From: Nemertoderma westbladi
Taxonomy: Eukaryota > Animalia > Xenacoelomorpha
Direction of reading: 5' to 3'
Assembly: GCA_032718475.1 (NCBI GenBank)
Contig: JAUCBJ010003734.1
Location: 62,001 to 126,000, forward strand
DNA: 64,000 nt
The first letter of the stretch is position 1; every line of letters begins with the position of its first letter. This document shows positions 1 through 51,794 of the stretch, in pieces. Made by a program: the position numbers and the translations under genes. Under the pieces are notes generated by a model that made no database searches, was not told the DNA's origin, and saw nothing but the letters and a program-made list of their open reading frames with translations.

Positions 1-1
1 A

Positions 2-523
2 ATGCCGGTCAAATACATGACTGTCCCTCGTGCAGAGTTACAGGCAGCAGTAGTATTGGTTGAGGTAAGTAAACAAATAATAGAGGAGTTAGACATGACC
101 TTGACATTATTCTATTGGACGGACGCATCTTTGGTGCTAGTGTATATTGCAGCTGACAATATTGCACTAAAGACATTTGTAGCCAACAGACGTGCCCAGA
201 TCATTGACTTTTCGACGAAGGAACAATGGAGACATTGCCTGGGAGTGTTAAACACCGCCGACATAACTTCGAGAGGTGCCATGCCAGCAGAATTCTGTCA
301 GGAAGAATCCCAGGCGTTTTGGTTACATGGACCGGAATTTCTAACAAGGACACAGGAGTATTGGCCAGAGCGGCTGAAGATTGTTACCAACCCGATGCCG
401 ATAGATGCAGAGGTCAAGTTGGATAAGGTTTCCAAGTCTAAGTCGCCAAAGTTTTGCGCTACGCATGGGAATAGGTTAGAAGGTAGTTTAAGAATGAGAC
501 GGGATTTAGAAAGCCGAACTTGA
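2..523 (+). pseudogene. pol: BEL/Pao pol fragment (RNase H C-terminal part), truncated by an internal deletion near 445
   Basis: PRAELQAA, FYWTDAS, FVANR, WRHC..N.ADITSRG match the pol of element B. After VSKSKS the DNA switches to sequence homologous to ~11090-10920, so the integrase is lost. Confidence 0.9.
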
Positions 524-666: not shown

Positions 667-3600
667 ATGACGAGTAAAGATATCACTGCGGAACCGAGGA
701 GAGGTTGGACCGCGAAAGAGGTAGCGGGACTACCGTTTGCCCGTCATGGTTGTAAGGATTCAAATGTGTACTATCATGGTCAATCTGTGATAGACCTAAA
801 CACCAACTTTAAATCGAATTATGATAAAGGATTGAGGAAGGAAAGAATGAGGGCGCTGGAGGAGAGAATGGAGGTGTTGCGTCGAGAATACCGAACCCGA
901 TACCCCTACGACTTTGCCGTTGATGTGTGCGACATAAGCGCGGATCCCAACAAGGAAATAGCGCAACTATACCATATGAATATGTATTTATTGCACGACG
1001 AACCTCTACCCGCTGTTAGAGATCAATTTGACGGAATGCATCTTTACCGAAGAACCCGAGGGGAAGATGAGGAGACGTTAAGGGTTTTCAGCGTGTATAA
1101 GTTGTTCTACAAATGCAGCGAATGTATGAATAAACAATATGTATCCATCCCCGATCGTCTAAATGAGCTGAATCCCGAACTGCTATTAACGCGGTGCAAG
1201 GCTCATCAGTTTCTTAGGAACAACGAAGGAGGTTACCCGATGAGTAATCCAATGATCAGCATCGATTTTAGCGGAAAGAAACCTCCGAGACCTGTTATCG
1301 TTACGACTTTGGATCCATACACGGAGATTAAACCTCGTACGACTCCCGCTTTGATAGAAACGGCAGCGGCCATTTCACTCTACTGAGCATATAAAGACCT
1401 GGAGGCGCAGCGCGAAGCAGCACGGGACTCGAGCACCAAACCCGCGGGAAAGGAACTCTCGAGTCCCTGGTCCACATTCACTTCGCCACATCCGGAGAAG
1501 AAGCTCACGCCTGAGCACCAGGACGAGATAAATGCGTTGCGACAGGAAGAGCGAGCGGCAAAGGCAAAACAACTATTCATCGAACATATAGCTGAGTATA
1601 ATAAGACTGCGGATAAACACCGGGAAGAAATGAGGAGAGTTACTGGATTTGTTCCACAGGCTGTATCTCAACCTAGACCGGTGTACTATTCCAGTGGTAA
1701 CGAAGCTGCGATGTTGGTAGATCATCCAGAGGCGCGAGATGCCATTTGGTTCTTGCCGATGGTGATGTTGGTGGACCATGGGAACATCGACTGCTTGAGG
1801 GAAGCCCTGCGTGACGTTCCGATGCAGATAACGGACTACAACACATTGGATAAGATTGGAGCTCCGGGGAAGGAGAGTAAGATATTTGGTTGGCTAGACG
1901 AATACATAAAAGGTATGGGTTGCGGTGGCTACGTTCCCAGACGATGACAAGGTAGACCAAGCATGGTTGAGGAGGAAGGGTTCCTATACCCAATATGACT
2001 GGTATGGGTTTTATAGCGCACTTGTTATACAATTGGGATTTCAAGCTAAAGATGCAAAAGAAATACGAGGAGGCGTACAGTGAATATAACATGCCGCCCG
2101 GAGCTGAGTTCAAATCCCATTTCAAGTGGCAAGCATTGGTATATTAGAATATTTGTGCACCACCCCATGCTTTGTTGCAATACTATTTGGTGTTGGAGTC
2201 AAACACGGTAACTTGCCTAATTACGGATATAGTCGCGGGAGTTTTGAAGCACCATCCATTGGTATTTGGAGGAGAACAATACATCAGTTCAAAAAGGGGG
2301 AATTCAGTCTGACGCGATGAAGCGTTTCTTAACCCCGTTCTTCAACCAATCGTTGGATAATACATCGATGGTCAGGAGGGGATCGGCGATATTCGAAGGA
2401 GTATACTGGCAGAACATTGGAGACCGGGGAGATCAACCTTCCATGGAGTATCCGACACCAGAGGCATTGGAGAAGTGGTTTGGGAACCAAACCTGCAGGT
2501 TTGGTACTCCCGTCCACTTGGATGCAGACAGACCCATTAGAGAGAGGAAGGGAGAGGGTTGGCCTGAGACGTTAGTAGAGGTGTTCGGAATGGATCTTCC
2601 GGTGGAGAAGACATATCCTAAACGAATGCAAGAGGAAATATTAGAGATCGAAAACAAAGGCGAGGATGTTTACTTAGTTCCAGATCAGCAACCCTTAACC
2701 GGAGAATATGACATTGTTCTAGATATTGGGAAGGAAGGAAGCACGAAACCGATTGGAGACCTCATATATGAGAGGGCTTGGTTCCCGCAAGCGTGTAGAT
2801 GTAAGTTGTGCGGTAGCACAAGACACAGTCAGAAGACGTGTGATGCTGTGGTCGAAGCAGTGCACAAGGTTTGCCATTGGTGTAATGAGACTGACCATTC
2901 ATTCTATATGTGTACCGTCTTCATTTCTCAGTGCGGATATTATGGGGTGAAGGGACACCGCAGTTCAAAGTGTCAGCTGGGTGACAACGCCTTTCAGAAC
3001 CATAGCGCTAACTTACTTCGAGAGATGGTAGATAAGTGGGAAGACGCGGCGGATTACCATATTCAGGCCCAGATGAGGTGGCTGCCGTTCAAGGCGGGCT
3101 ATGGATTCTGGGCGGTGGATCCTTCACATATAGCGTACGAGCCCTACTTACAATCGCTACCCCAGTACCAAGAATTATTGTTAACTGCTCAAGACCTTCC
3201 GCAGAATACTGGAGTTGTGGTTATCAGGTCATACTTCAGACAACTTAATATGGACAATAAATATACTTGGAACTTTATCGCTATTTGTGATAGGATCACA
3301 AACGGAATATTCTCAGAGACGAGGAAGGTGGTGCACGTGCAGGGCGATTGGAGGATAGCGGCCATCCAATACAGGAACGAATTCCTGTTGACCCACATTC
3401 GTTTAGGGTCATTGACCGCCGAACGGATAGCAGAGCAGCGGGCTGATGCGCCCACCGCAACGACAGCTGGACCTCATAGCTCACGGCAAGGAGCTGATGA
3501 AGCGGTCCTCAGTAAACGCCAAGCAAAGGACGCTCAATATCACGAGATTATTGACGCTCAGCGGCTGCAGCGCAAAGCGCATGGGATGTCCGAAAGGGCG

Positions 3601-3843
3601 CACCTACAATTACAGAAGGAAGAGTTGGCGGAGGCGCCCGCAGCGACATGGCAAATGGGGCAAGGCCGAGGAAGGAGCATCAGTTGGGAACTAGTTAGCG
3701 CTCAGGGGTCGTCCTCATCGCCGGTCCCAGGAAGCGACGCCTCGAGAACGCCATCGTTGGAATCTACTGGGGGCAGACTAGTGTATATGGGAAGGGGAAG
3801 AAAGAGAGGAGTGAGCCCGAGAGACCCAGGAGCCAGCCGGTGA
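667..3843 (+). pseudogene. Disrupted copy of the accessory ORF2 (triple CCHC zinc-knuckle protein)
   Basis: ORF pieces 667-1386, 1537-1947 and 2266-3843 align to the ORF at 7187-10882. Lesions: TGA at 1384-1386 (CGA in B), frameshifts, and a ~0.5-kb deletion near 1998. Confidence 0.9.
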
Positions 3844-4213
3844 TGCCACATATCATCAAGGAGCGACAAACTATAAATATATACATCATCGTCGCTCTGA
3901 TGTATATTGTAGGCTTTAATTGTATATCCGGCTGGACTCATATACACATATAATCATATTTGTTCTAAAATCTATTGAAGGAAGTGAAGAAGGCGAAGGA
4001 GGTGATTGGCGAGACAAACCTGCGGGTTTGGCTTACTCCTTTCACCTACCTGAGCGATCACCAATTGCGATTGCATTTTTTATAATTAAGTAAATGTCCG
4101 AAATGAAAGAAATTATTACGTAATTTTATATTTAGTTTGATTATCGGCCTTTAAACGCAATAATATTTAGTTAACCAAATTCGCCTTATTAGATTGTTAA
4201 TTTGTAAATACAT

Positions 4214-6386
4214 TGATAAACAACCGCGACCTCTATACTAACAGCAGAACTGTTGAACAGACAAATACCCGTTAATATCCTTCTGTCAACCTAATGAGCT
4301 CTCGCCTAACCAATAAGACACAAAGACTGCTCTACCGTTAAGTAAAGGGGATCAGGAGCGTGATATTACTAAATTGTAAAGGTTGCTAAATACAAAACCG
4401 CTACTTACCGTTAGATGGCGCTAACCTGCCGTCCGCTAATATATTTTACTAAATTTACACAGCTCCTGCAAAATCGCTTGTTCCTTTCTCTACCGATCGC
4501 TCGATAGAGAGCTAACTGTTCGAATCTATGAGCCACGCGGGAATAACCAAAACAATAAACCCGAGTCGGCTCCCTAAGCTTACTTAAGACGAGTGCGAGA
4601 GGCCTTGCACTCAGAGTATTCTTACGCCTAATTCTATCACTATTAAAGCACGCTATTGCCTACGCCTTTTCTAATCGCGAATACTGGGGGTTCCCTAACG
4701 TAATGTGTGAATGCGAGAATATTTAAATAATCAAATGATACAGTATTTGTTTCTACGTGGATAATGCCGCTCTGGGTCTAAACTTGCCTGCCGCTGGCTT
4801 TAGGCCAGCTAATTACTAGCGTATTGTGCGTACCGAATAGTGCGATCTAGCTGATTGCCCGCTAATGCAAATAACCACTCAGCGTGAATAGTTTACAGTA
4901 CTCTAATTATTACCTTAGCTACTCTCCGCTATGCTGCGTACTAATTCTTAATTTTTTACTAATCAATTACAGTCACAAATATTTAACAGCGTACTAATTA
5001 CTAAGAGTTCCAGAATGCGTAATTCTAATTTATCACGCAACAGGTTTCGCTAGTAATAGCCTAAATTGCCGTATTACTTTGACCTAATCAGTAACTAATC
5101 GTTGTAACTAAGAAATAGAAATCAATCAAAGAGAAAAGGGCGCCTACCTAAACATTCACAATCATAGGCACACTTCAGTAACACACCAATCAGCGTCAGC
5201 AATCACAGTTCGCAATTATGCAGTTAACTACTGTATAGCCCACAATTGTGCGATTCACTATTCGTACTCCACACTCAACGTTGTAATACGCGCAGGCCTC
5301 TCCCGGATACATCTAGGCTTCCTAACTAACCCGATTCCTGCCCCCCTAATACTAAATAGAGACGAAACCTGGATCATCAGCCCCCTAGTTACTGTATCGG
5401 CGAATGGTCTGCGTGTTACAGTGCAAAATGCCCGCCCGCAACGGTGACCCCCCCGCCAGCGTTGCCCGTCTTTGAATCCTCCGCTCTCCCCTAGTCGCTC
5501 AACCCCCCGATGTGCCCACCGCCTACTGGCACCTTAGCCCTCCATCATGCTAATAGCTACCGTAGCGGCGCATGCAAAATCACAAAGTCTGACAGTCTCA
5601 GAAATCCCTTAGGATTATTGCGTAGAAAGGAATCACATAGAACCATTAATCAAAAGGTAGAAATTATAGTTCCGGTTGTAATTAGCAGTAATCGATAGGA
5701 TTAATTGAGAAACACAATCAAGAATAATCGCACTAGCAAATCATTTCGAGATATTAATCGAAAATAGCAAATTGCAGAAATACGCTAAAATATCCGTCAA
5801 AAGGTGAATAGGGACAGCTCAGCAAGTACAGGGGTGATAGAGATAGAGCTCTACCGGCACACCGCCAATTTATAGGTGATCCGAGTGGGTGATGCAATAG
5901 GGTGACTCAATCGCTCTCCTATTGGCTCTCCAGTCCGCGCTAGCATTAGACCAACCTGGAAGCAGTTAGTCCAATAAGGAGGCCGGATTGTAGCCCTATT
6001 GCTGCCCAAACCTCAAATTATTACCATATATGGTAATGGATCATATCCCTGGCTGCTGAATGGCCAGGACAGCGTCTCTATATGCTAGCCCTATTGATGC
6101 TAATATCAGCAAGCACAAAATCCAGGGTCCGACTAAACTTGCTACCCTGGAACTATCTACATATATCCTAATACAAAATTACGTAGGTAGGGCTACATAT
6201 TATACAAAATGGATGGATTCAAATATATGGGCGTTTTGGTTTCCCTATCTAAATATCACCTCGCTATTATATCTTATCTAAAGTATTATGCTGCACAACG
6301 GACTAATATTGCGTACAGTATAACGGACTAATATATTATACTGCATAATGACTAATAATGTGGATACAGCGCCATATACCGTAACA
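4214..6386 (-). repeat. 3' LTR of element B (2173 bp)
   Basis: Direct repeat of 21215-22994. Sense strand starts TGTTAC (6386) and ends TTTATCA (4214). Confidence 0.95.
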
Positions 6387-6393
6387 CCGCTCC
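6387..6393 (-). other. Polypurine tract of element B (sense GGAGCGG), preceded by a GGGAAA/TTTCCC hairpin
   Basis: Abuts the 3' LTR start. The same hairpin and GGAGCGG are conserved at 23161-23190 in element A. Confidence 0.7.
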
Positions 6394-7186
6394 AAGGGAA
6401 ATCATACAATGTTTCCCTCCAACTGTAGAAGAGTATAAGGTGATGTATACAAACAAAATAAATTTCTATAAATCCTACTATTTACAAAATATTGCTATAG
6501 ATATTGCATAATGAATTGCATACAAATTAAATTTACAAAATATTGTTTCTCGTTCGTTCTACATAATGATTACTACATACAAAATTAAATTTACAAAAAT
6601 ATTACTTCCTTTATTTATTTACAAATTGACTGTCTACCTATTGAAATGGAACATGGCTAGGACAATGTCCCCCATTTCCCATCTCAAATTAACGATCAAC
6701 ATTAACAAGATAAACTAAATATAAACGTATTTGAGGCTAAATTTTTAACTAAATTGCATTAAAGGCCGATAATCAAATTAAATATAAAATACGTAATAAT
6801 TTCTTTCATTTTCGGACTTTACTTAATTTCTTATAAAAAACGCAAATCATCTTGGTTTGATGATTGCTCAGGTAAGTGAAAGGAGTAAGCCAAACCCGCG
6901 GGTTTGTCTCCCCAATCACTTCCTTTGCCTCTTTCAATAAACTTTAGAGTAAATAAAGTCATATACACAAAATCAAATATAGTATAGGCTCAAAATCATA
7001 TTTCCAACGGACTACAAAGTAAAAGTATTTCCTTTCAATATTTTTGGCCTTCGAAAATAAAATTCTAAAATATGGATACGACTAGTGCATATGAGTCCAG
7101 TCGAATGATTGATCAAAACCTACAATATACATCAGAGCGACGATGATGTATATGTCTAGAGTCTGTCGCTCCGTGATATTATAGTC

Positions 7187-10100
7187 TCATCGGCTAGCTC
7201 CTGGGTCTCTCGGGCTCGCTCCCTTCTCCAGATACACCAGTCTACCCCCTGTAGACTCTGTTGACGGCGTCCGTGAGGCGTCACTCCCCGGAACCGGCGA
7301 CAATGTTCCCTGAGCCCCGACAGATTCCCGGCTGGTACTTCTCCCTCGGCCTCGTCCCAATTGTCGTGCTCCCGTGGTCGCTTCCGCCAACTCTTCCTTA
7401 TGCAATTGCACACGCGCTTTTTCCGACGCTCCCTGCGCCTTGCGCTGCAATCGCTGTGCTTCTATAATAGAGTGATAGTGGTCGTCCTTGACTTGACGCT
7501 TGTCTTGGACCCCTCCTCCTGGTTCCTTCCGCGAGCCTTGAGCTCCAGCGGTCGTCGCTGTGGTCGCTGCGATCCTCTGTTCCTGTATCCTCTCAGCGGT
7601 CAATGAACCCACTGGCACATGAGTCAACAAGAATTCGTTGCGGTATTGTATAGCCGCCATCCTCCAATCACCTCGCGCGCGTACCACTTTTCTAGTCTCC
7701 GTAAATACACCCTTCGTGATACGATCGCAAATAGCAACGAAGTTCCAGGTGTACTTGTTATCCATATTCAACTGTCTGAAGTATTCTCGGACTACGATAA
7801 CTCCAGTGTTCTGTGGAAGATCTTGAGCAGTTAGGATGAGTTCCTGATATTGTGGTAGCCATTGTAGATATGGCTCGTACGCAACATGTGATGGGTCTAC
7901 CGCCCAAAATCCATATCCCGCCTTAAATGGCAACCAACGCATCTGCGCTTGAATATGGTAGTCAGCCACACTCTCCCACTTATCTAACATCTCCCGAAGT
8001 AGGTTAGCGCTATGGTTTTGAAAGGAATCATCTTGCAGCTGACATCTCGCGCTACGATGTCCCTTTACCCCACAATATCCACATTGAGAAATGAAGACGG
8101 TGCACGTGTGAAACGAATGGTCGGTCTCATTACACCAACGACAGACCTTATGCGCCGCCTCTACTACCGCGTCGCACGACTTTAGATTGTGCCTTGTGCT
8201 GCCGCACAATTTGCACCTACGCGCTTGTGGAAACCAGGCCCTCTCGTATATGAGGTCTCCAATCGGTTTCGCACTTCCTTCCTTCCCAATGTCTAATACG
8301 ATGTCGTCCTCTCCGGTCAACGGTTGTCGATCCGGAACAAAGTAAACATCCTCGCCCTTGTCCTCTATCTCCAATATTTCCTCCCGCGTTCGTTTCGGAT
8401 ATGTCTTCTCCACCGGAAGATCTACTCCGAACACCTCTACTAACGTCTCCGACCAGCCCTCCTTAACAGGTCTATCAGCCTCTGAGTGGAAGGGAGTACC
8501 AAACCCGCGGGTTTGATTCCCGAACCACTTCTCCAAAGCTTCTGGCGTCGGATACTCCATCGACGGTCGGTCTCCCAAATTTCCGATGTTCTGTCGATAT
8601 ACTCCTTGGAATATCGCTAATCCTCTCCTAACCAATGACGTATTCTCTAACGATTGGTTGAAGAACGGGGTTAAGAATTGCTTCATCACGTCGGATTGGA
8701 TTCCCCCTTTCGAGCGAACGTATTGATCCCCTCCGAATACCAATGGATGACGCTTCAAAACTCGCGCAACGATATCCGCTAATAAACAAGTCACCATGTT
8801 CGACTCAAGCACCAAATAATATTGTAGCGACGCACGGGGTGGCGCGCAAATGTTCCAATACACTAACGCTTGCCGCTTGAAGTGGGATTTGAACTCCGCT
8901 CCCGGTGGCGTGTTGTATTCGCCATACACCTCCTCGTACTTCTTCTGCGTCTTTAACTTAAAGTCCCAATTATACAACAAGTGTGCTATAAAGCCCATAC
9001 CAGTCTTGGCAGAGTTGGGATACTCCCTATAAATTCCAATATCCTGTGCCCATAGCAACAATAGCTTGGTGTCGACAAACGGTCTCGGCAATCTATCTTC
9101 CAGATCAGTCATGGCGTTGAAGTCGCTCTCCAAATCGCTCTGGACTCCCGATCCCACCTTGACGTAATCTTGGTTGAGAATAGCCTCTCTAACTTTCCTG
9201 GGTAGCATCCTGGAGTCGATACACTCCGCTCCGTGCATACCTCCTCGCCTGCATACCTCCAAAATCTGCTCCCTAGGATCCTTCCCCTTCCGATATTGTG
9301 TCGTTATGATGGGCTCCGGTCTCTCTCGATCCGCCCTCACACGCATAAACACATGAGTCACACCATCGGCCGCACGAATTTGAATACACTTGCTGGTCAA
9401 ACATTCTTGATGGGACCCTCCTTCATTGTCGTAGAACATCACCCTCCAATCCTGCAGTGATTCCTCCGTTTTCCTCCACTGACGCTGAATCTCGTCTGAT
9501 GGGGTCCACATGCGCTCGATAGCCTTGTGGTCATCATATCGGGTATAAGAACCCTTCCTCCTCAGCCACGTCTGGTCTACCTCCTCGTCGTCTGGGAATG
9601 TAGCCACCGCGACCCATAACTTGATGTACTTATCCAACCATCCAAATAATTTACTCTCCTTCCCCGGAGCTCCAATCTTATCCAATGTGTCGTAATCTGT
9701 GATCTGCATTGGGACATCACGCAAGAACTTCGCGCATAAAACTTCCCGTAGACCGTCAACGTTCCAATGATCCGCCATTCTTACCATCGGCAAGAATCGT
9801 ATCGCTTCTCGCGACTCCGGATGATCTACTAATATCGCAGGTTCGGTGCCGTCGGAATAATACACAGGTCGGGGTTGAGATACGACCTGTGGAACAAATC
9901 CGGTCACTCTCCTTGTCTCCTCTTGATGTCTATCCGCGGTCTTATTATACTCCGCTATCCTATTCTCGAATAACTCTTTCGCCTTCGCCGCTCGCTCCTC
10001 CTGCCGCAACGCGTCTATGTCGTCCTGATGCTCAGGCGTGAGGCTTCTCGCTCGGTGAGGCGAAGTAAACGCAGTCCAGGGACTTGAGAGCTCCAAACCC

Positions 10101-10882
10101 GCGGGTTTGGTACCCGAGTCCCGTGCCGCTTCGCGCCGCGCCTCTAGATCCTTATAGGCTCGGTACAGCGAAATGGCCGCTGCCGTCTCTATCAAACTGG
10201 GTGTCGAACAGGGTTTAATCTCCGTATACGGATCTAATGTCGTAACGGTCGGCGTAATGGGTCTCGGAGGTCGCTTTCCGCTGAAGTCGATACTGATCAT
10301 CGGGTTGCTCATCGGGTAACCTCCCTCGTCGTATCTAAGGAACTGGTGAGCTGGACATCGCGTTAATATCGGTTCCGGATGTTGCTCGTCTAGTCGGTCG
10401 GGAATCGCCACGTCTTGCTTATTCATGCATTCACCACACTTGTAGAACAGCTTGTACACGCTGAAGACTTTCGGCGTCTCCTGATCCTCGCCTCGAGTCC
10501 TCCGGTACAGATGCATTCCGTCGAACTGATCTCGGACTGCAGGTAGAGGTTCTTCGTGTCGTAAATACATATTCATATGGTACAGTCGTGCGATCTCCTC
10601 ATCCGGGTCTGCACTAATGTCACATACGTCCAAAGCAAAGTCGTAGGGATACCGCATGCGATACTCTCTCCGCAAAACTTCCATCCGGTCCCCCAACGCT
10701 CTCATTCTTTCCCTCCGTAATTCCTTATCATAAGTCGGTTTATATTTTCCGTTTAGCTCCATCACGGACCGCCCATGGTAGTAAACGTTAGAGTCTTTAC
10801 ATCCTGGTCGCGCGAATGGTAGCTCCGCCTCCTCTCTGGCAGTAAATCCTCTGCGCGGTTGCGCTCTAATATCCTTCTCCAT
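7187..10882 (-). CDS. Accessory ORF2 of element B, ~1231 aa, unknown function; three CCHC zinc knuckles, CxxC...CxxH motif, RG-rich C-terminal tail
   Basis: Open for 3.7 kb. First ATG at 10882 (the track start at 10915 is TTG; the homologue in A starts at the equivalent position, 667). Knuckles CKLCGSTRHNLKSC, CRWCNETDHSFHTC, CGYCGVKGHRSARC. Many differences from copy A are synonymous. Confidence 0.88.
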   Translation of the reverse strand: MEKDIRAQPRRGFTAREEAELPFARPGCKDSNVYYHGRSVMELNGKYKPTYDKELRRERMRALGDRMEVLRREYRMRYPYDFALDVCDISADPDEEIARLYHMNMYLRHEEPLPAVRDQFDGMHLYRRTRGEDQETPKVFSVYKLFYKCGECMNKQDVAIPDRLDEQHPEPILTRCPAHQFLRYDEGGYPMSNPMISIDFSGKRPPRPITPTVTTLDPYTEIKPCSTPSLIETAAAISLYRAYKDLEARREAARDSGTKPAGLELSSPWTAFTSPHRARSLTPEHQDDIDALRQEERAAKAKELFENRIAEYNKTADRHQEETRRVTGFVPQVVSQPRPVYYSDGTEPAILVDHPESREAIRFLPMVRMADHWNVDGLREVLCAKFLRDVPMQITDYDTLDKIGAPGKESKLFGWLDKYIKLWVAVATFPDDEEVDQTWLRRKGSYTRYDDHKAIERMWTPSDEIQRQWRKTEESLQDWRVMFYDNEGGSHQECLTSKCIQIRAADGVTHVFMRVRADRERPEPIITTQYRKGKDPREQILEVCRRGGMHGAECIDSRMLPRKVREAILNQDYVKVGSGVQSDLESDFNAMTDLEDRLPRPFVDTKLLLLWAQDIGIYREYPNSAKTGMGFIAHLLYNWDFKLKTQKKYEEVYGEYNTPPGAEFKSHFKRQALVYWNICAPPRASLQYYLVLESNMVTCLLADIVARVLKRHPLVFGGDQYVRSKGGIQSDVMKQFLTPFFNQSLENTSLVRRGLAIFQGVYRQNIGNLGDRPSMEYPTPEALEKWFGNQTRGFGTPFHSEADRPVKEGWSETLVEVFGVDLPVEKTYPKRTREEILEIEDKGEDVYFVPDRQPLTGEDDIVLDIGKEGSAKPIGDLIYERAWFPQARRCKLCGSTRHNLKSCDAVVEAAHKVCRWCNETDHSFHTCTVFISQCGYCGVKGHRSARCQLQDDSFQNHSANLLREMLDKWESVADYHIQAQMRWLPFKAGYGFWAVDPSHVAYEPYLQWLPQYQELILTAQDLPQNTGVIVVREYFRQLNMDNKYTWNFVAICDRITKGVFTETRKVVRARGDWRMAAIQYRNEFLLTHVPVGSLTAERIQEQRIAATTATTAGAQGSRKEPGGGVQDKRQVKDDHYHSIIEAQRLQRKAQGASEKARVQLHKEELAEATTGARQLGRGRGRSTSRESVGAQGTLSPVPGSDASRTPSTESTGGRLVYLEKGASPRDPGASR

Positions 10883-11639
10883 TATGCCTCGCGTATATAC
10901 ATATATATATCCCAATAAGTGCCGTTACGTAACCAATTACACTGTGGGTAAATCAGTTAGATGTCGCCGAAAGACAGACCTCCCGAACCCCCCCGCCTTC
11001 CAGCAGTTCAGGTTCGACTCTCTAGATCCCGTCTCTTCCTAACTAACTATCCTCTAACCTATTCCCATGCATAGCGCAAAACTTTGGAGATAAACTGGCC
11101 GTGACCAACTCACTTTTTGATGCCCAAACTACTCCCATTACTCGTACTAAACTACAGTAGTTAGAAAGGACTATAGCCACAATACTCGACTATACCAAAC
11201 CCACAGGTTTGATAATCGAACATCACACATCCTGCAAACTACTGAGTGGGGTCCATGTATGCCTCTGGTGCTACTAACCTTTAGCACCTTGGTTGCACTG
11301 TTGGCACCAATCTGTGGAAGTTGCTAAACTCAATTTACACTCCTACGTAATATAGCCGTCACCATGGTTTCTAAATGCTATTTTCCAGGCTTCACGACTT
11401 TTCAAATTACTGTATATCTATAGACGAATTCTAAAACGCGTCTATACACAGCGTCTGGAATTGTCTTGGGTTCACTTTTCTAATTTTAAAATTTTTTAAT
11501 TTTCCAAAAATTTTTGAAAATAAAATTTTGTTTTGATACCCACTAGACAAAACTCAACGCAAATCACCACAACCCCGCTCCTATGCATTTCCTTGTATTT
11601 GCATACGAGGAATGCATACGAAGTGAGTTGCGTCCAACA

Positions 11640-14600
11640 CTAATTCTGTTTTGAGGCAGGAGACAAATTATAATCTCCCGTCTCGATACGTGTCTCCTCT
11701 AATAACACAATATCTTGGACCGGTCGGTCCAAGGTGTGTAAACCATTAGTTTTACACTTCTTTGGGTGCGGACACTTGCACCTAATTTTCACAGTGACTG
11801 TGCGCACTATGTTTTGCACGTCTGGGTGTATATGCAAGATCACTCCCGTCTCCCAATACTTTCTCTTGACAATAGGTTCGGTTATCAGTACGTAATCTCC
11901 CCTTTGGAGACTCCGAACCGTTTTGTACCACTTTGTTCTGGTAGATATGGTGGGAAGATAGTATTCCCGCCAATATTCCCAGAATGTGTACGCGACTAAT
12001 TGAGTCATTTTCCAGCTTTTACGACTATATAGGTCGGCACTAATGGGTTCTGATGCCGGCACAAGAAATGCTGGACTCTGCATTAGCAAATGATTCGGCG
12101 TTAATGCAACACCGTCTGGCAACATAGCTATCGGCCTCGAGTTTAGTGTATGCTCGATTTCAATGAAAGCTGTGACCAGTTCGTCGTCGGTAAGTTGTTT
12201 GTTCACAGGCAATGTTTTGGCAATGGCCTGCTTTACAGAGCGAACCAAACGCTCCCAACTTCCTCCTCTCCAAGGACTTTCTGGAGTATTAAATCTCCAT
12301 TCTACTCTTTGCGGCAAAAGTGCTGCAGAAATTTCCTTATTCTGTGCCGCTTTATGAGCCGCGTTCAACTCGCTATTCCCCCCGACAAAGTTTGTACCCT
12401 TATCGGAGTAGAACGCCTTTACTAGTCCTCTCCTGGCCATAAATCTCTTCAAGGCCAGGAGCAGAGATTTGGTCGACATGTCTGCCACACGCTCAATGTG
12501 TATGGCTCTACTAGCCATGCATGTCAGTAGCAGACCCCATCGCTTGTGGGTCAGCCGTCCACTCTTTGCTTCAATCGGACCAAAACAATCCACCCCTGTG
12601 TTCGTAAAGGGTGGGTCATATGCCTGCACTCTCGCTTCCGGGAGTTCAGCCATCTCCTGTTCCAATACTCTGGCGTTCACTCTCTTGCAAACCAGACAGG
12701 CGTCATACATGGTGCCGACTGCCCTGCTTGGCTGCAATAGAATGAATCGCTGTCTCGCTGCCGACAGACAGTGTAACTTTCCCGCGTGATGTAACCGCTT
12801 GTGTATATCCCATAGAATCGCTCTTTGCAATTCTATTGGGTGACTAGGGATTATCACTGGGAACCGAAACTGTGAGTTTATGTCGACAGTCTGGATTCTC
12901 GATCTATGACAAATCAAACCCTTATGGATTAATGGACTCCATTTTCTAAGGGGTTTATAGAGAACTGGTCGTTGAGCCGATAATAGATGGAATTCTTTCG
13001 GGAAGGCACACATTTGATAGTGTTTCAAATGCTTTAATTCCGCTTGATCAATCTCATCCTCTGTCAGAGGTTGTTTCAATTTCTGAATTCGCTCACTATT
13101 AGCGCTCGATGGTTCTCTCAAATGTTTCGAATGTTTTATACAAAGGTACGAAACGTATCGGCTTAACCACGCAGTTCTTTTACAAATTGTCAGCCAAGAG
13201 GCAGACGAATTTAGTAATTTGTCATAAATACTACATGGCTCTAATGCCAGCGACGGTTGTCCGCTAACTAATGGAAGTTTCGAATCCAAACCCGCAGGTT
13301 TGGAAACCAAAGGCTCCATTTTGTCGGTCATTTTCTGTCCGTCACTTACCAATTGTGACTGTCGTCTAGTCTGTAAGGGTGGTTTTACGTCGTAACTTAC
13401 CCTTCCGGACCTAGTCGTCACGTAAGTCTGTTGGTCTGACAGGTCTCCGGGCCGCTCCAATAACTCTCCAGGCCGCTCCAATGACTCTTCAGGCCGCTCC
13501 AATGACTTGAATTTGGCTTTAGACTTCGACTTAGAGACTTTCTCCACCTTGACTTCTGCATCTTTAGGCATCGGATTGGTCACTATCTTTAGTCGCTCTG
13601 GCCAATGTTCCTGTGTCCTCGTTAGAAAATCAGGTCCATGCAACCAAAACTCCTGCGACTCTTCCTGACCGAATTCCGCCGGCATTGCACCTCTCGAAGT
13701 TATGTCGGCCAGGTTCAACACTCCCGGACAATGTCTCCATTGTTCCTTCGTCGAAAAGTCGACGATCTGAGCGCGTCTGTTGGCCACAAATGTCTTTAGT
13801 GCAATATTGTCGGCCGCAATGTATACTAACACCAAGGATGCGTCTGTCCAATAGAATAAGGTCAATGTCGTGTCTAACTCCTCAATTATCTGCTTACTTA
13901 CCTCGACCGAAACTACAGCCGCCTGTAACTCTGCACGAGGGACAGTCATGTATTTGACCGGCATTGTCTTTGATCTAGAAGTCACAAAGGCCGTCTCAAA
14001 TTTGTCCTGACTTACCTCTCGGCGAAGGTAGGCTACCATACCAAAGCCGGTGTCACTTGCGTCACTAAATAAGTGGAGTTCGAGATCAGCTGGGAATACC
14101 AGCTGATTCGGAAAGTAGGAACGGGGTACATCTATATTTTTCAATAGATGCAACTCGGCTTCCCACTCCCTCCACTGCTTTGCATGTATAGGATATATTG
14201 GTTCGTCCCACTCTAAGTCGGACAACCAAATTTTCCTCATGCACGCTCGTGCCTGTAATATAACCGGACTGATAAAGTTCATCGGGGCAAATAGTCTACT
14301 TAAAGTCGATAAGCAAATTCTCTTTGTCAAAATTTTGTCTGGGCTACTGGGCTCAAATCTAACTCTTACCTGGAACTTATCTGAGTTCGGATTCCAAGCG
14401 AGTCCCAGTACTCGCGCCATGGGAATTGGTTCTACCCCCAATTCTATGTCTCCGCTCCCGCGATCTTTCACCGGGAACGACTCTAATATGGCCTCCGAGT
14501 TTGTAGTGAACTTGGTCAGAGGAAATCCCCCTGTAGCCAAGCACTCTTGCAGGCCGTGAGCCACTTCTATGGCTTGTTCCGCTGTGTCCTTGGACACCAA

Positions 14601-17600
14601 TCCGTCGTCCATGTAGAAGTTTCTCAAGATGGACTCGATCACTTCTACTGGATACTTACCAATCTGGGCTGTTGCCGTTTTCTTTAAAACAAACAGCGTG
14701 CCGTTTGGACTATCGCGGGCGCCAAATATCCTAACGTACATCTGGTATGTAACCACTGGGCCGGATAAGTCTTCATTCTCATACCAGAGAAAGCGAAGGC
14801 TATCCTGGTCTGCCTTACAGGCTCTTACCTGGTGGAACATCGCCTCGATGTCACAAGTAAATGCGAATCGCCGCTGTCTAAAATGCAACAGTATTCCAAT
14901 CAAATAGTTATTCAGGTTGGGACCATCCATCAACTCTGAATTCAGGGACATACCTCTATAGACTGCTGCGCAGTCGTTGACTACTCGGACTTTGTCTGGC
15001 TTGTCAGGGTGAGTCACATAGTGGTGTGGAAGGTAATAAGTCTGGTCAGTCACTAAGTCAGGGTCCTCTACCTTCCCAGCAAATCCCTTGGCAAAATAGT
15101 TGTTGATCTGGGCGCAATACTTCTCCCTAATGTTCGGATTCTTTAGCAACCGAGCCCTTACTCCGTTCAATCTTTTCAAGGCTAAGTTGTAGTTGTTCTC
15201 CAATTTAGGAGGTTGTCGACGCCACAACATTCCAACTTCAAAATGTCCAGTCGGTAGCAGACGTATGGTATCTTCCATCATCTCCAGCGACCGCTTCTCA
15301 TCAGTGGACATGGCTAGGTCATATCCACCGGGTTCCATTGCGTCCCTATCCAGCCATTCGACGGTTCTGGCTCCTGTCTCGAGGTCCTGGCGTATCAATT
15401 CCTTCTGTAACTCCTCCTCACTGTATTGGAAAATGTCTAGGTCTCGATATTTAGCCACTTGACCCTCCACTATGTCTGTATAAGTCAAAACGTTAGTCAA
15501 ATAAGTAGCGTGGGCCGCTGAACCAGACCCACGGGTCTGATAACAGTAGTCCTCGGGTTCACTATCTGTCCGGTCGTTATGAAGTGGTTCCGACAACCTA
15601 ACATTATCGGGAATCAACTCCTCGTCCGACTCGCTAAAGTCACTATAGTGGTCGATACAGGTCCTCCTAAACTCGTCTATGTCCGGTGGTTCTACTAACG
15701 GTGGTTGAGTTATAGGCTGTAATTCATCGTATCTGTTCATTGGCTTGTCGCCACCTGTAAACTCATAAGACATGGGTACTCTTGTATACCAACCTAGTAT
15801 GGTCCTATGGGCATGTGGTCCATTGACATGCGGCTCAGCTGGTCTCGTTTCCCATATCTGGTGTGCGATCAGCTGTTCTGCACCAATCAACATAGAAACA
15901 TTCCTATAACCTACCTGATGTCTGGGTATCCTGAGCTTGTCAAAATACTCCTGTGCTATGGGACTCATCGGCGGCACCTTACCTAACTGCCTGCCGAATC
16001 CCTTCATAGCTAGACACTTAAATCCGTCCAATGGCAAAGCTTTCCGTTCTTGTCGAGTGTGTTGGTCTCTCGGAAGTAGGGAGTCTAGTTCCACCGAAAT
16101 TCTGTGTCCCTTGAGGTCTCCTACCCCATGCATAGACTTCAACTCTATTTGGATCTCCTCGGCGTCCTGGAAGCTAGAAACAGCTCTCGCCACTTCTTCG
16201 TCGATATACGATAATGTGGACGCAGTGTCCAACATGACATATATTCGCTTCGATCGCTTATCGCCAGTGAGTTTCACCGGAATCACGCTAAATATTTCCG
16301 ACGTGGCCGATGATAGATACGTCCGCGCGCTGGTCGATGAACTATCCGCGGTGAAACCTTGGCAGGTCACCTCTCTCGCGCTCGACTCGCCATCCTCGTC
16401 CGACGAACCTGGTTGATAACCATCGTCCTGGATGCCAGTGTACGTATTCCTCCTTATCGATATGGGTTCTTTGCTCCCCTTCCTGTGAGGATTTCGCTGT
16501 AAGTAACGGTCCGTTGGGGTATGGAAATCCGCATGTAGCAACTTGTGATGTAGTCTGCCGCATTCCATGCATCCGTCCTTGCTGTTCGGGCACTGCCGCC
16601 GTACATGACCTGGCGCAAGACATGCCCAACAGGTGTCCAACGTCCGCACTTGAACTCTTCTCTGTTCCGAATTTAATTCTTTGAACCGTCTGCAACTATC
16701 CAACTTATGGTCGTCAGATCTTACCTCCTTTAGTAAACAGTATTGGCAACCTACAAATCCATCTGGCAACTCCTGTTGCTTTAACCTAGGTCTATCTAAC
16801 CGCTCACCTGACCATACTCGCGAGTCTGATCTAAAGGCTGGGGTACTCGAATTATATCTGTCTACTGAGTTATAAGTCACAGTGGTCCTGTCATCGTCAA
16901 AACTTACCATAGACTTACCGGTAACAGGTTTAGACTCTCTCATATTCTCCTCTGAGAAGTTTGATTTCATCTCTGCTACTGTGTCTGTGGCTATCATGTC
17001 ATGAATGTGCTGAAGTGTCAACACCTTACCTTGACCCTCCAACTTATTCTCTAATTTGCGCCATTTCTGTCGGTAACGCATGTTTAGACGTCTTATTACG
17101 CTTTTCAAAACTTCGGCGTGATCACCATGATGAGGTAGATTCACCGTCCTTAAGATGTCCAATGCGTTCGAAATAGCGTTCGCTAAGTTCAACAGCTCTA
17201 ACGGAGTTGTAATCCTTCCGCCCTTACCCAAGTCTTCCACTATCGACTGCGCCATCTTGGTTTTATTCCCGTAGATGTCGCTAAGCGTCTTCATCGCTAA
17301 CTCGAATGCTCTTTCATTGCCGACGAAATTATCAGCAATGGCTCTAGGTTCTCGATGGAGCATCTGAAGCAAATAGTTGAACTTCTCATTGGGAGAAAAG
17401 GTGCTGTTGGTTAGCTGCTCGTCGACATAGGTTTTGAAAGTCCTCCAGTGCTTATGGTTGCCCATAAACTTTTGGGGTTGTTGCGTCGGCAGTCCTTGCC
17501 TAGCAGCAAACTTACCTATGTCCCTAAGGGTTGCGTCGTTCCGGGTTAACAAATGGTTTAGTTCCGCAGGGTTATTAAGTCTGGTCCTTTCCCGGTGGTT

Positions 17601-21214: not shown

Positions 21215-22994
21215 TGATAAACAACCGCGACCTCTATACTAACAGCAGAACTGTTGAACAGACAAATACCCGTTAATATCCTTCTGTCAACCTAATGAGC
21301 TCTCGCCTAACCAATAAGACACAAAGACTGCTCTACCGTTAAGTAAAGGGGATCAGGAGCGTGATATTACTAAATTGTAAAGGTTGCTAAATACAAAACC
21401 GCTACTTACCGTTAGATGGCGCTAACCTGCCGTCCGCTAATATATTTTACTAAATTTACACAGCTCCTGCAAAATGCAAATAACCGCTCAGCGTGAATAG
21501 TTTACAGTACTCTAATTATTACCTTAGCTACTCTCCGCTATGCTGCGTACTAATTCTTAATTTTTTACTAATCAATTACAGTCACAAATATTTAACAGCG
21601 TACTAATTACTAAGAGTTCCAGAATGCGTAATTCTAATTTATCACGCAACAGGTTTCGCTAGTAATAGCCTAAATTGCCGTATTACTTTGACCTAATCAG
21701 TAACTAATCGTTGTAACTAAGAAATAGAAATCAATCAAAGAGAAAAGGGCGCCTACCTAAACATTCACAATCATAGGCACACTTCAGTAACACACCAATC
21801 AGCGTCAGCAATCACAGTTCGCAATTATGCAGTTAACTACTGTATAGCCCACAATTGTGCGATTCACTATTCGTACTCCACACTCAACGTTGTAATACGC
21901 GCAGGCCTCTCCCGGATACATCTAGGCTTCCTAACTAACCCGATTCCTGCCCCCCTAATACTAAATAGAGACGAAACCTGGATCATCAGCCCCCTAGTTA
22001 CTGTATCGGCGAATGGTCTGCGTGTTACAGTGCAAAATGCCCGCCCGCAACGGTGACCCCCCGCCAGCGTTGCCCGTCTTTGAATCCTCCGCTCTCCCCT
22101 AGTCGCTCAACCCCCCGATGTGCCCACCGCCTACTGGCACCTTAGCCCTCCATCATGCTAATAGCTACCGTAGCGGCGCATGCAAAATCACAAAGTCTGA
22201 CAGTCTCAGAAATCCCTTAGGATTATTGCGTAGAAAGGAATCACATAGAACCATTAATCAAAAGGTAGAAATCATAGTTCCGGTTGTAATTAGCAGTAAT
22301 CGATAGGATTAATTGAGAAACACAATCAAGAATAATCGCACTAGCAAATCATTTCGAGAAATTAATCGAAAATAGCAAATTGCAGAAATACGCTAAAATA
22401 TCCGTCAAAAGGTGAATAGGGACAGCTCAGCAAGTACAGGGGTGATAGAGATAGAGCTCTACCGGCACACCGCCAATTTATAGGTGATCCGAGTGGGTGA
22501 TGCAATAGGGTGACTCAATCGCTCTCCTATTGGCTCTCCAGTCCGCGCTAGCATTAGACCAACCTGGAAGCAGTTAGTCCAATAAGGAGGCCGGATTGTA
22601 GCCCTATTGCTGCCCAAACCTCAAATTATTACCATATATGGTAATGGATCATGTCCCTGGCTGCTGAATGGCCAGGACAGCGTCTCTATATGCTAGCCCT
22701 ATTGATGCTAATATCAGCAAGCACAAAATCCAGGGTCCGACTAAACTTGCTACCCTGGAACTATCTACATATATCCTAATACAAAATTACGTAGGTAGGG
22801 CTACATATTATACAAAATGGATGGATTCAAATATATGGGCGTTTTGGTTTCCCTATCTAAATATCACCTCGCTATTATATCTTATCTAAAGTATTATGCT
22901 GCACAACGGACTAATATTGCGTACAGTATAACGGACTAATATATTATACTGCATAATGACTAATAATGTGGATACAGCGCCATATACCTTAACA
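21215..22994 (-). repeat. 5' LTR of element B (1780 bp; lacks a 392-bp block present in the 3' LTR)
   Basis: Matches 4214-6386 except for the missing equivalent of 4475-4866, one C in a C-run and about five substitutions seen by eye. Confidence 0.95.
22476..22645 (-). promoter_or_regulatory. Candidate LTR (U3) promoter: CArG box, CCAAT boxes, AP-1, C/EBP-ATF site, TATA
   Basis: Palindrome ATTACCATATATGGTAAT at 22628-22645, TGACTCA, TGATGCAAT and sense TATAAAT at 22476-22482. The same cluster is at 5868-6037. Motif match only. Confidence 0.55.
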
Positions 22995-25100
22995 TACATG
23001 AAAGAAGGTATATTTTTGTAATTTAATTTGTATGTAGTATCATTATGCAATAAGAGTAGCAATATTTTGTACGTAATTATTATAGAACGAAGTTGTTTGA
23101 TTTATTTGAAAGTAAATATATTTTGTTATTCCACATCGCCCTATTTCTTCTACAATTGGAGGGAAACATTACTTGTTTCCCTTGGAGCGGTATTACGATA
23201 TATGGCGTTGTGTACCAGAACAGCCCATTATACAGTATGGAGCGATTAGATAAGTTATATCGATGTACAGCATTCATTAGATAGGGAAAATAAAATACAC
23301 GAGTTTATATAATTCATCCGATTTTGTACAGTATGTAGCCTTACATATGTAAATTTGTAATAAAACCTTAGTATATAAATTTACGGTAGCAAACTTTCAT
23401 AAAACATTAATATGAGTTTGCCGTTTATTGACATTAACCGAACTTAATATGTATTTGTACTAATTTCTCTTATATTTCTCTAAAAACTAACGTTGTACTA
23501 AATTGATGCTAATGTGCTTTAATAATCGCGAAATTAATGCTACGGCCATAAACCTATAAGCCCACCGAGACAGATTCATTACCATATATGGTAATAATTT
23601 GAGAAATGGGGAAGCATAGGATCTCGATCCGGCTCTCCCATTGGCCTAGCTATTTTAGGTTGATCTAATGGTAGTAGAATTTGTTGGACCAATGATATAA
23701 CCATTGCGTCATACCAATTTTTTTGTCAGTATCAGTGTTCAGTGTATCAGTACACCAGTACAGTGGTATAGTGCTCGTGTTAGTTGATTTAAATGTTTTA
23801 ATCTTCTTGCTTGTTACTTCTGCTAATTCTGTAAATTGTTATATGCTGATTTCTACTGTTACGCCTTTTGATTACAACTTTGAATAATGATCTTCTTGCA
23901 TTGACTCTTGATTTCTTTAATCTTTGTGATTGCGATGTAGCAAATCCTTACAAGGATTTTCCCTTTCAACTGTCAGACTGTTTGTAAATGCATGCGCCGA
24001 TACGGTAACTATTTGCTTTAGCATGATGGGCTAAGGGTACCGGTAGGCGTAGCGGGTGTACTGAGGAAGCGACGGAAGGAGGAGTGGAGAATCCAATGAG
24101 GGGCAAAGCTGTGCGGAGGGCTAGCAGTTGTGGTTGGGATTATCAATAGGGACCGTGGACCGGTCATCACTACAGTGTTTGGGGGCTGACAATACAGACT
24201 TCGTCTCAACCTTGTAGTACTAGGGTAGTAATAGCGGGTGTAGTTAGGAGGACCGCATGTAGTCTGGGTGACCTTATTGCTCTCTTACACTAATCTATAC
24301 GCTAGTTTACACTAGTCGACACTAGCTGACTAGCGCTGTCGATAGCACTACCAGCGCTGTTGCTAATGCTATTTTATGTTGTGTTGCTGAAGAGTGCCTG
24401 ATGTTTGAATGTAAATGATTAGATAGGCGCTACTTTTCTTGATTGTTTTCTATTTCTAAGTTTATGCTTATTAATTGCTGTTAGGTCAAAATAATACAGT
24501 ATTTAGGCTGTTGCTAGTATAACTCAGTAACGTAATAATTAGTAGTACGTATTCTGGAATACTTCGTAATTAGTACGCAAATCTGTAATTTTGAGACACC
24601 GTAGTTTATTTAGCATGTTAGAATAAAATTAAGAACTTGTACGCTGCATAGCGGAGAATAGTTGGGTAAATTACTCTTAGAATTACCGTAGATTATTCAA
24701 CGCTAGGTGGTTATTTGAAAATAGCGAGTTAGCGGACTGACAGTGGTAGCCAGTGTAGCACAGTAGTAATTTGCTGGCCTAAAGCCAGCGCAAGGACAAG
24801 TTCCGACATTAGGGCAAATTAATAGCCTATCCCATTATAATAGTAAAATATTCTCACATTCGACGTTATTCCGCCCGATAACTGCCTGTAATTCTCTTTG
24901 GGAAGTGGGCGCCGAGTGCTAAGTCACCGCACTCATATTAAGTAGCTTAGGGAGCCATTTCAGATTTATTGTTTTGGTTGCTGCTGTTTTGGATTATAAA
25001 TTCAAACAGTTAGCTCTCTGTTGAGAAATCGACAGAGAAAGGAGCGTGTGATTGTCAGAGCCGTATAGTTCATAACAGTAAAATATTCTTAGAAGACGGT
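22995..25100 (+). mobile_element. Element A, right part: rest of 3' UTR, PPT (23184-23190) and diverged 3' LTR starting at 23191 (right end approximate)
   Basis: Reverse-complement similarity to ~6610-4430 of element B. GGAGCGG is followed by TATTACG (TGTTACG in B); CArG palindrome kept at 23578-23595; similarity fades near 25100. Confidence 0.85.
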
Positions 25101-28262: not shown

Positions 28263-28269
28263 ACATCCA

Positions 28270-32361: not shown

Positions 32362-33199
32362 GTTTGCCACAATAATGTAGGTTGCGTTTGGGTAAGTTTA
32401 CATTTGCCACAATAATGTAAGTTCTGTATGTGTAAGTTTACCTCATCAATGTAAGGTTGTGTAAGTGTACGTTTACCACAATATTGTAGGTTGTAAATAC
32501 TGTAAGTTTACCTCATTAATGTAATGTTGTGTAAGTGTAAGTATTCCTCAATAATGTAAGGTTGTGTAAGTGTAAGTTTGCCACAATAATGTAGGTTGCG
32601 TTTGGGTAAGTTTACATTTGCCACAATAATGTAGGTTGTGTATGTGTAAGTTTACCTCATCGATGTAAGGTTGTGTAAGTGTACGTTTGCCACAATATTG
32701 TAGGTTGTAAATACTGTAAGTTTACCTCATTAATGTAATGTTGTGTAAGTGTAAGTTTTCCTCAATAATGTAAGGTTGTGTAAGTGTACGTTTGTCACAA
32801 TAATGTAAGGTTGTGTAAGTGTACGTTTACCTCATTAATGCTGTAATTTTGTTCAAGTGTAAGTTTTTCTCAATAATTTAAGGTTGTGTAAGTTTAAGTT
32901 TTACACAACAATGTAGGTTGTGTAAGTGTACATTTGCGTTTGCCACAATAATGTAAGTTTGGGTAAGTGTACATTTGCCACAATAATGTAGGTTGTGTAT
33001 GTGTAAGTTTACCTCATTAATGTAATTTTGTTCAAGTGTAAGTTGTTCTCAATAATTTAAGGTTATGTAAGTTTAAGTTTGCCACAATAATGTAGGTTGT
33101 GTAAGTGTACGTTTGCGTTTGCCACAATAATGTAAGTTTGGGTAAGTGTACATTTGCCACAATAATGTAGGTTGTGTATGTGTAAGTTTACCTCATTAA
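32362..33199 (-). repeat. Inverted block of the 34-35-bp satellite
   Basis: Reverse complement of the same monomer. 32362-32755 mirrors ~42328-42725, including rare variants. Confidence 0.93.
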
Positions 33200-51780: not shown

Positions 51781-51794
51781 TAACGCCATTAATT

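Follow-up and report, generated by a model that had tools for sequence, protein, structure and literature searches.

The accessory gene between pol and the 3' LTR of a BEL/Pao retrotransposon in Nemertoderma westbladi is a selected gene of the element, predicted to encode a DEDDy exonuclease with three CCHC zinc knuckles, and its product likely binds RNA and acts as an exoribonuclease, trimming RNA from the 3' end to the element's advantage (probability roughly 0.55). The open reading frame lies at the same place in two diverged copies, is under purifying selection, contains the knuckles, and is homologous to seven exonuclease-plus-knuckle proteins.

At 18.8 kb, the BEL/Pao element is unusually long for an animal retrotransposon; its two LTRs are almost identical, and a target duplication of 5 bp flanks it. 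It lies in a window of 64,000 nt (the whole stretch of DNA that was analysed) together with an older copy, and their parts are as follows.

4209..4213, no strand: target-site duplication, left copy (TACAT)
4214..6386, minus strand: 3' LTR, 2173 nt, TG...CA
6387..7186, minus strand: 3' untranslated region, 800 nt, with a short purine-rich tract at its end adjoining the LTR
7187..10882, minus strand: accessory ORF, 1231 aa (P0001), dN/dS 0.093
10883..11639, minus strand: spacer, 757 nt, from pol stop to accessory ATG
11640..20021, minus strand: gag-pol, single open frame, 2793 aa, with BEL/Pao domains and YMDD
21215..22994, minus strand: 5' LTR, 1780 nt, TG...CA
22995..22999, no strand: target-site duplication, right copy (TACAT)
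1..444, plus strand: pol fragment of the older copy, from the RNase H region (93% aa identity); a deletion has joined it to the spacer
667..3843, plus strand: accessory ORF of the older copy, broken, nt identity about 77%
23014..25043, plus strand: older copy resumed past the young element, end of 3' UTR and 3' LTR

The gag-pol frame has Pfam matches to PF03564 (E 2e-9), PF05380 (E 2e-36), and PF18701 (E 2e-16), as well as a match to PF17921 (E 8e-5) below the cut-off, and the Pao-specific domain order (DUF1759, RT, Peptidase_A17/RNase H, integrase, DUF5641) is present, which places the element in Belpaoviridae. Compared with the ICTV ranges for this family (element 4.2-10 kb, LTR 0.2-1.2 kb; PMC8742986), both the 18.8-kb element and its LTRs of 1.8-2.2 kb are larger. 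The LTRs, which end in TG...CA and together with the target-site duplication enclose the accessory ORF, differ by 5 substitutions over about 1780 aligned nt. The element had been called intact, to which one qualification applies: the 5' LTR is short of 392 nt present in the 3' LTR (4472-4863). No TGG start of a tRNA primer-binding site was found immediately after the 5' LTR.

As the original prediction stated, the accessory ORF (7187-10882) is an open frame of 3.7 kb on the same strand as gag-pol (11640-20021), located between pol and the 3' LTR; it runs on the minus strand from ATG to TGA and encodes 1231 aa without internal stop. One candidate splice acceptor is present in the spacer (10883..11639) near 11152. 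The mRNA for the protein would arise by splicing or from an internal promoter. The young element was inserted in the 3' UTR of the older copy in opposite orientation. The older ORF, damaged by two stops, two one-base insertions, and a 530-nt deletion removing aa 450-625, has the same position in its own element, which agrees with the proposal that the gene is element-encoded. Neither the broken state of the older copy nor the exonuclease core had been mentioned in the original prediction.

The accessory ORF is under purifying selection, the N-terminal half of the exonuclease included. Over 1041 codons, older and young copies differ at 144 first, 98 second, and 435 third positions, reproducing the excess at third positions reported earlier, and the codons quoted at that time for QLNMDNKYT are found in the sequence. 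With a dN of 0.110 and a dS of 1.18, the dN/dS ratio is 0.093 (Nei-Gojobori, 1039 codons; bootstrap 95% 0.073-0.117), which is far from 1, as expected of the selected gene that had been proposed, and close to the 0.056 of the adjoining RNase H fragment. The shared variant sites at aa 448-631 (exonuclease N-half), which bear on the part absent from the older copy, are 25 synonymous versus 3 non-synonymous, compared with a synonymous share of 33% expected for transitions.

The encoded protein is divided into the following regions and motifs.

9503..10882, minus strand: N-terminal region, aa 1-460, dN/dS 0.04-0.17
8738..9502, minus strand: predicted DEDDy-type 3'-5' exonuclease domain, aa ~461-715, through homologue profiles, with weak fold support
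9422..9430, minus strand: favoured ExoI motif D485-x-E487, a candidate register, not significant alone
9134..9136, minus strand: ExoII-like D583, the last residue of VGSGVQSD; six of the seven homologues also have D
8804..8818, minus strand: ExoIII-like Y689-x3-E693, retained in the older copy
8042..8215, minus strand: three CCHC zinc knuckles, aa 890-947, by motif and homologue-only profile
7835..8041, minus strand: helical segment (aa 948-1016) that follows the knuckles and aligns with a motif common to the homologues
7190..7582, minus strand: low-complexity C-terminal tail, aa 1101-1231, including the GRGRGRS run

For aa 1-460, sequence and profile searches found no homologue; this region contains a charged stretch (aa 241-325) and a cysteine-histidine motif at aa 149-179 (10346-10438), which is present as had been noted but is spaced as CxxC-x23-CxxH rather than x22. 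The three knuckles (CX2CX4HX4C, starting at aa 890, 914, and 934) are those of the original prediction, and the nucleic-acid binding proposed there is likely. A homologue-only profile of knuckles plus tail scored 65.4 bits on P0001, compared with 6.2 for the best of 1000 shuffles, while a "tail-only" profile, in which one row was mis-anchored, did not beat shuffles (4.7 bits vs 8.1). The helical segment has a pLDDT of about 52-82 and a profile that is not significant alone. The C-terminal tail is the least conserved part (67% identity and dN/dS 0.19 for aa 1111-1231), and the GRGRGRS run, also recognized earlier, lies about 50 aa before the protein end.

The original prediction recognized no family for this protein. 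Through its homologues, however, aa ~460-715 can now be predicted to form a diverged DEDDy/DnaQ-like 3'-5' exonuclease fold. P0001 or its parts alone gave no exonuclease family match in Pfam, NCBIfam, or PDB sequences, and bacterial exonuclease profiles on P0001 were not above shuffles (47 and 99 of 1000 reached equal score). Seven unnamed remote homologues were found (E 1.7e-9 to 9.2e-4), all of which possess an exonuclease-like N-terminal part and CCHC knuckles in the same layout as P0001, and none of which matches an exonuclease family above the Pfam cut-off. A profile of six homologues, built without P0001, recovered P0001 with an hhalign probability of 99.55 (E 1.8e-23); searched against the PDB, it matched EXD2 (E 5.3e-6) and Egalitarian (E 9.8e-4), and its matches to TbRND (7c42/7c45) lie on the knuckles only. 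For the family exonuclease alignment, the match was 87% to a set of 32 bacterial WRN-like proteins and 53% to one of 67 RNase D-like proteins, with ExoI-III in order. For homologue P0004, the top ESM Atlas cluster was PF01612 plus zf-CCHC of euglenozoan origin (0.86, a lead only), and all 10 of the best family-bearing matches belong to the family or clan of this cluster.

When 48,161 chains were searched by fold, EXO domains of Nibbler took the first two places (Z 5.6 and 5.2, rmsd 4.1-4.2, 126-129 residues aligned, aa 554-714) and TbRND (7c42/7c45) reached Z 3.5; Z below 8 can reflect a common arrangement, and the fold matches do not extend over ExoI. By title, 47 of the 50 matches listed are exonucleases or polymerases or complexes with such a domain. 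The proteins closest to the central domain by structure and profile, Nibbler/Mut-7, EXD2, WRN, Egalitarian, and EXD1 (PF01612 clan), differ from P0001 in being host proteins without the knuckle module and with family-specific insertions, and sequence identity in the fold matches is 9-15%. The structure model of P0001 has a mean pLDDT of 45 (exonuclease region mostly 30-60), and Foldseek with this model returned nothing at E<=0.001; a single-sequence model with a pLDDT of 34 was set aside, and a rotavirus VP4 match (E 0.04-0.3) was taken as chance. No match was obtained in word-seeded homologue searches (proteins of 176-2155 aa), in viral and metagenome contigs scanned with P0001, the exonuclease part, P0003, P0004, and P0009, or for P0004 in phages, and the exonuclease part found three plasmid matches at chance level only.

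The putative catalytic residues D485, E487, D583, Y689, and E693 look present. For ExoI, D485/E487 is the best placement within aa 440-560 (9.3 vs 4.7 for D518) and ranks third across the whole protein; the WRN-like profile selects the same register, with a score reached by 81 of 1000 shuffles. For the two N-terminal blocks of the homologues, the best placements are D485 and G507, which keep the expected order and a spacing of 22 (20-27 in the homologues), and the domain probably carries an insertion of ~45 aa at aa ~515-558. D583 also aligns with the WRN-like GVGxxxD motif, while the position of E693 is occupied by D in 5 of 6 scoreable homologues and by E also in P0004. MAFFT and one hhalign run instead placed the DxE of the homologues on F512/R514, which would imply a dead site; after the block tests, the D485/E487 register is favoured over F512/R514.

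In an active exoribonuclease, the knuckles would hold single-stranded RNA and pass its 3' end to a two-metal site formed by the five residues above, in the manner demonstrated for trypanosome RNase D. In this enzyme (TbRND of Trypanosoma brucei, PDB 7C42), the knuckles raise RNA binding and cleavage (PMC7797062). P0001 resembles TbRND in architecture only, a DEDD exonuclease followed by tandem CCHC knuckles; according to the cited sections, TbRND is a mitochondrial enzyme of the host that has four knuckles and a linker of 28 aa (PMC7797062), whereas P0001 has three knuckles, a linker of ~170 aa, and additional regions at both termini, and is encoded in a retrotransposon. As a tentative guess, the most likely targets would be small RNAs of the host silencing machinery, or else the non-templated tails by which element RNA is marked for decay. 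A putative anti-silencing role, one of the functions suggested originally, is plausible, and nothing in this analysis points specifically to the other two, RNA export or packaging.

Egalitarian, EXD1, and Exuperantia are adaptor-type examples of a dead exonuclease fold, and P0001 might likewise be a catalytically dead, RNA-binding adaptor for the localisation, export, or packaging of element RNA, or for the binding of silencing factors. The alternative ExoI register, the E for D at ExoIII, the presence of Egalitarian and EXD1 among the profile and fold matches, and a long N-terminus that could recruit partners are in line with this, and with CERV of Cer1 an RNA export protein that is not an env has a precedent (PMC10309623). 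Nevertheless, we regard it as rather unlikely, given that homologue blocks and the WRN-like profile favour the D485 register, that the ExoII D and ExoIII Y/E are retained, and that none of the 31 listed variants alters D485, E487, or D583.

Both RNA and ssDNA are bound by CCHC knuckles, and an enzyme acting on DNA during reverse transcription, which would proofread or trim cDNA ends and help to copy an RNA of roughly 17 kb, is an improbable alternative to the exoribonuclease. The length of the element (18.8 kb against 4.2-10 kb for Belpaoviridae, PMC8742986) speaks for it, as do the DEDDy nature of polymerase proofreading domains and WRN (PMC5408684) and the DEDDy ORFs of giant Terminons (PMC6431247). 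Against it, the ORF is separate and has no evident route into the particle, and giant planarian elements are described, in the sections cited, without such a domain. The closest named matches are moreover mostly RNA-acting (Nibbler, Egalitarian, TbRND-like cluster), although EXD2 acts on both RNA and DNA. An unlikely, more far-reaching reading would be a very large, actively spreading BEL/Pao lineage that swapped env for an active knuckle exonuclease of an unnamed family, which may destroy host silencing RNAs or proofread the copying of a ~17-kb genome; nidoviruses keep long genomes through an exonuclease, in parallel to the proofreading reading.

The seven homologues may belong to the host genome proper or to other elements, and the ORF could be a captured host gene or second mobile element riding along without serving the retrotransposon. 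This is highly improbable and largely refuted, since two copies 23% apart at the DNA level both carry the ORF between pol and the 3' LTR, introns are lacking, the dN/dS is near that of the RNase H fragment, and variants among present copies are mostly synonymous; own termini of a nested element were looked for in flanks and spacer, where no terminal repeats were found and the longest flank-to-flank match is 12 nt. A diverged env or second gag, suggested by the env position and nucleocapsid-like knuckles, is almost certainly wrong and is refuted for aa 460-1030, for the central domain is exonuclease-like, the knuckle-plus-tail profile gives 4.1 bits on the element's own gag-pol against 65.4 on the ORF, no env or capsid family matches, no RxK/RR furin site exists, and the Kyte-Doolittle mean over 19 residues peaks at 1.47 (aa 691-709, ExoIII helix), all consistent with the non-env gene without visible signal peptide or transmembrane segment that had been described.

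Known third genes of BEL/Pao elements encode env proteins, such as the F-type of roo, the phlebovirus-type of Cer/Atlas, and the gB-like type of mosquitoes (PMC8742986, PMC9094657, PMC13524379); the gene described here shares their post-pol position inside the element, but a soluble predicted nuclease replaces the membrane glycoprotein. It is an extra ORF of the kind known in bdelloid LTR elements, here in BEL/Pao: Juno/Vesta LTR retrotransposons and Terminons possess a DEDDy-exonuclease ORF3 (Rodriguez et al. 2017, PMC5408684), which is likewise a separate same-strand ORF after pol without transmembrane segment; in both cases its putative product is an exonuclease of RNase D/WRN-like type whose tetrad carries a single D-to-E replacement. 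Set side by side from the published description, the motif is DEED in the bdelloid ORF3s and DEDE here; in the sections cited, these elements form rotifer clades not described as BEL/Pao, and neither triple CCHC knuckles nor a long N-terminal region is described for their ORF3s (PMC5408684). In the literature searched, no DEDDy extra ORF was found for BEL/Pao. An exonuclease in a C. elegans Cer element may already have been reported, by Malik et al. 2000 or in Cer surveys, in which case the present gene would be less new.

What exonuclease ORFs do for retroelements has been a question ever since they were described in rotifers, and the present case comes from a different LTR superfamily, with purifying selection that the cited sections do not show for rotifer ORF3s (PMC5408684). 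It points to an unnamed exonuclease-plus-knuckle family missed by Pfam, and to BEL/Pao elements larger than the 15-kb bound used in one survey (PMC3118150). Because the predicted exonuclease is coupled to RNA-binding knuckles, an arrangement for which an enzyme of solved structure sets a precedent, the question of its role becomes testable in vitro.

The young BEL/Pao element spans 4214-22994 (18.8 kb), is flanked on both sides by a TACAT duplication, and carries LTRs that have TG...CA ends and, over about 1780 aligned bases, only 5 differences from each other. The 3' LTR holds 392 nt absent from the 5' LTR, which partially match the LTR of an older, broken relative, and no TGG-starting primer-binding site was found directly after the 5' LTR (21181-21214). 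Its gag-pol is one 2793-aa frame (11640-20021) with Pao-specific Pfam domains, and is unusually long because of an R/E/Q-rich repeat region in gag (about 18400-19000), likely a coiled coil. As originally noted, the accessory ORF (7187-10882) is open and in the same sense as gag-pol; it lies on the minus strand and encodes P0001, 1231 aa without a stop. The motifs described for it were found, while the N-terminal zinc motif has a spacing of x23, not x22.

The older copy comprises:
1-444, plus strand: RNase H fragment, after which the integrase was lost by deletion
667-3843, plus strand: accessory ORF, preceded by a spacer and followed by a partial 3' UTR
23014-25043, plus strand: remaining 3' UTR and LTR, picking up beyond the young element

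The young element was thus inserted into the 3' UTR of its relative, whose ORF has decayed (two stops, two one-base insertions, and a 530-nt deletion of aa 450-625). The accessory ORFs of both copies occupy the same place and are about 77% identical, and no repeat longer than 12 nt was found between the ORF flanks; therefore, the ORF is a resident gene of the element, as had been proposed, and not a nested element. No other relatives of it were found in the 64-kb window, which contains further repeats:
28267-29900: satellite-like tandem array, about 35-nt period
30233-33116 and 42328-45466: long inverted repeats enclosing a second BEL element, several arms 96-100% complementary
35208-39980: that second BEL/Pao family, pol 33% identical and split by one stop
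45400-48350: satellite-like tandem array, about 29-nt period
51327-54575: satellite-like tandem array, about 37-nt period
54642-55898: BEL integrase fragment
61289-63226: Ty3/gypsy-type protease-RT-RNase H frame

Over 1039 codons, the two copies of the ORF gave dN 0.110, dS 1.18, and dN/dS 0.093 (bootstrap 0.073-0.117; 0.04 to 0.19 over eight segments), which identifies a selected gene; the RNase H fragment gave 0.056. Public contigs were aligned over aa 448-631 to cover the deletion gap of the older copy. Of 31 sites listed there, 28 differ between copies, 25 of them synonymously and 3 non-synonymously, and the 3 private to the window copy are all non-synonymous, the neutral expectation for transitions being 33% synonymous. 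In a wider contig alignment, 24 of the 40 variants listed (292 more are unlisted) fall inside the ORF; the shared ones are 11 synonymous and 1 non-synonymous and the window-private ones 3 and 9. In both alignments each base was classed singly. Such a pattern is typical of a gene that is under selection while its family is active and drifts neutrally once a copy has inserted. A spreading variant, found in DNA runs X1, X3, and X6, has a joint that skips 329 nt at 10408-10736 with two letters between (net 327 nt), an in-frame deletion of aa ~49-159 that removes the first CxxC. The region of aa 1-460 is conserved between the two copies; no homologue of it was found.

P0001 alone had no match in Pfam, NCBIfam, or PDB sequences, and word-seeded searches were blank. 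A full phmmer scan of aa 1-1031 against 1.84 billion representatives (E<=0.001) yielded seven unnamed proteins (514-727 aa, 26-32% identity; six of the clusters singletons, the seventh with two members; source contigs 2.5-13 kb), each with an N-terminal domain that a variable linker joins to three CCHC knuckles and a helical tail. In P0003, one of the seven, the knuckle-plus-tail module occurs twice and the exonuclease motifs are more decayed. A profile of six homologues without P0001 matched P0001 (probability 99.55), EXD2 (E 5.3e-6; 1.7e-4 with P0001 added), and Egalitarian (9.8e-4), and a homologue-only exonuclease profile scored 53.9 bits on aa 551-703 of P0001 (best shuffle 3.0). Matches of the family alignment to two bacterial sets, WRN-like (87%) and RNase D-like (53%), kept the order of the three Exo motifs, and the nearest Atlas cluster of the homologue P0004 offers a lead, a euglenozoan exonuclease-plus-CCHC group (0.86). 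An AlphaFold model from eight sequences was weak, with a mean pLDDT of 45 and values mostly of 50-82 in the knuckles and tail, and Foldseek returned nothing significant with it, EXD2 chains taking ranks 3-5 and 7-9. A wide fold search placed two Nibbler EXO domains on top (Z 5.6 and 5.2); by title, 47 of the 50 matches listed are either exonucleases or contain an exonuclease domain. These profile, Atlas, and fold lines are each modest, and they agree. The ORF is real, selected, and non-env, and its central domain, whose family had not been recognised, is assignable as a predicted DEDDy exonuclease.

ExoII (D583) and ExoIII (Y689, E693) align clearly with the homologues, the E in place of D also occurring in P0004. 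ExoI is ambiguous. MAFFT sets the homologues' D-x-E on F512/R514, as did one hhalign run, not significant alone, and a homologue N-half profile found nothing. Ungapped block scoring of aa 440-560 placed the strand best at D485-x-E487 and the next hairpin at G507, a gap of 22 residues (homologues 20-27); the WRN-like profile gave the same strand register and the RNase D profile the same hairpin, neither significant alone. None of the placements is significant by itself (42-81 of 1000 shuffles reach the score). The D485-x-E487 register is favoured, and would imply an insertion of about 45 aa where the homologue P0008 has one of about 60. We consider the active site probably intact (roughly 65%). 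The main rivals are an adaptor with a dead nuclease, which is less likely, and a DNA proofreading enzyme, which is improbable. A passenger and an env are both close to excluded; P0001 has a hydropathy maximum of 1.47 and no furin site. The third genes of BEL/Pao are described as env-like (PMC8742986; likewise the available parts of PMC554778, PMC9094657, PMC13524379, and bioRxiv 10.64898/2026.03.22.711591).

The knuckles of Trypanosoma brucei RNase D are RNA-binding and increase its cleavage (PMC7797062, available part). By analogy, the knuckles of P0001 would hold single-stranded RNA and its DEDDy domain would trim the 3' end, most likely to counter RNA-level restriction. Within the 757-nt spacer, ATG occurs 11 times and one candidate splice acceptor is present, from which we infer that P0001 may be made from a subgenomic mRNA. 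Both copies retain a TA-rich run just 5' of the accessory ATG (10890-10910 and 625-650), a possible internal promoter element.

DEDDy ORF3s are known from bdelloid LTR elements and Terminons, for which the available parts of PMC5408684, PMC6431247, PMC5718144, and PMC6338049 propose roles in 3' processing or silencing without demonstrating activity. The word "exonuclease" is absent from the main text of PMC3118150, PMC554778, PMC2774666, PMC9094657, PMC13524379, and PMC8220671, and no BEL/Pao exonuclease ORF was found in the open-access literature searched. P0001 is assignable to a known kind, a retrotransposon-borne DEDDy ORF as in bdelloids and Terminons. What appears new is its BEL/Pao host, oversized at 18.8 kb against 4.2-10 kb for BEL/Pao genomes (PMC8742986), the predicted fusion of exonuclease to knuckles, and a long novel N-terminus.
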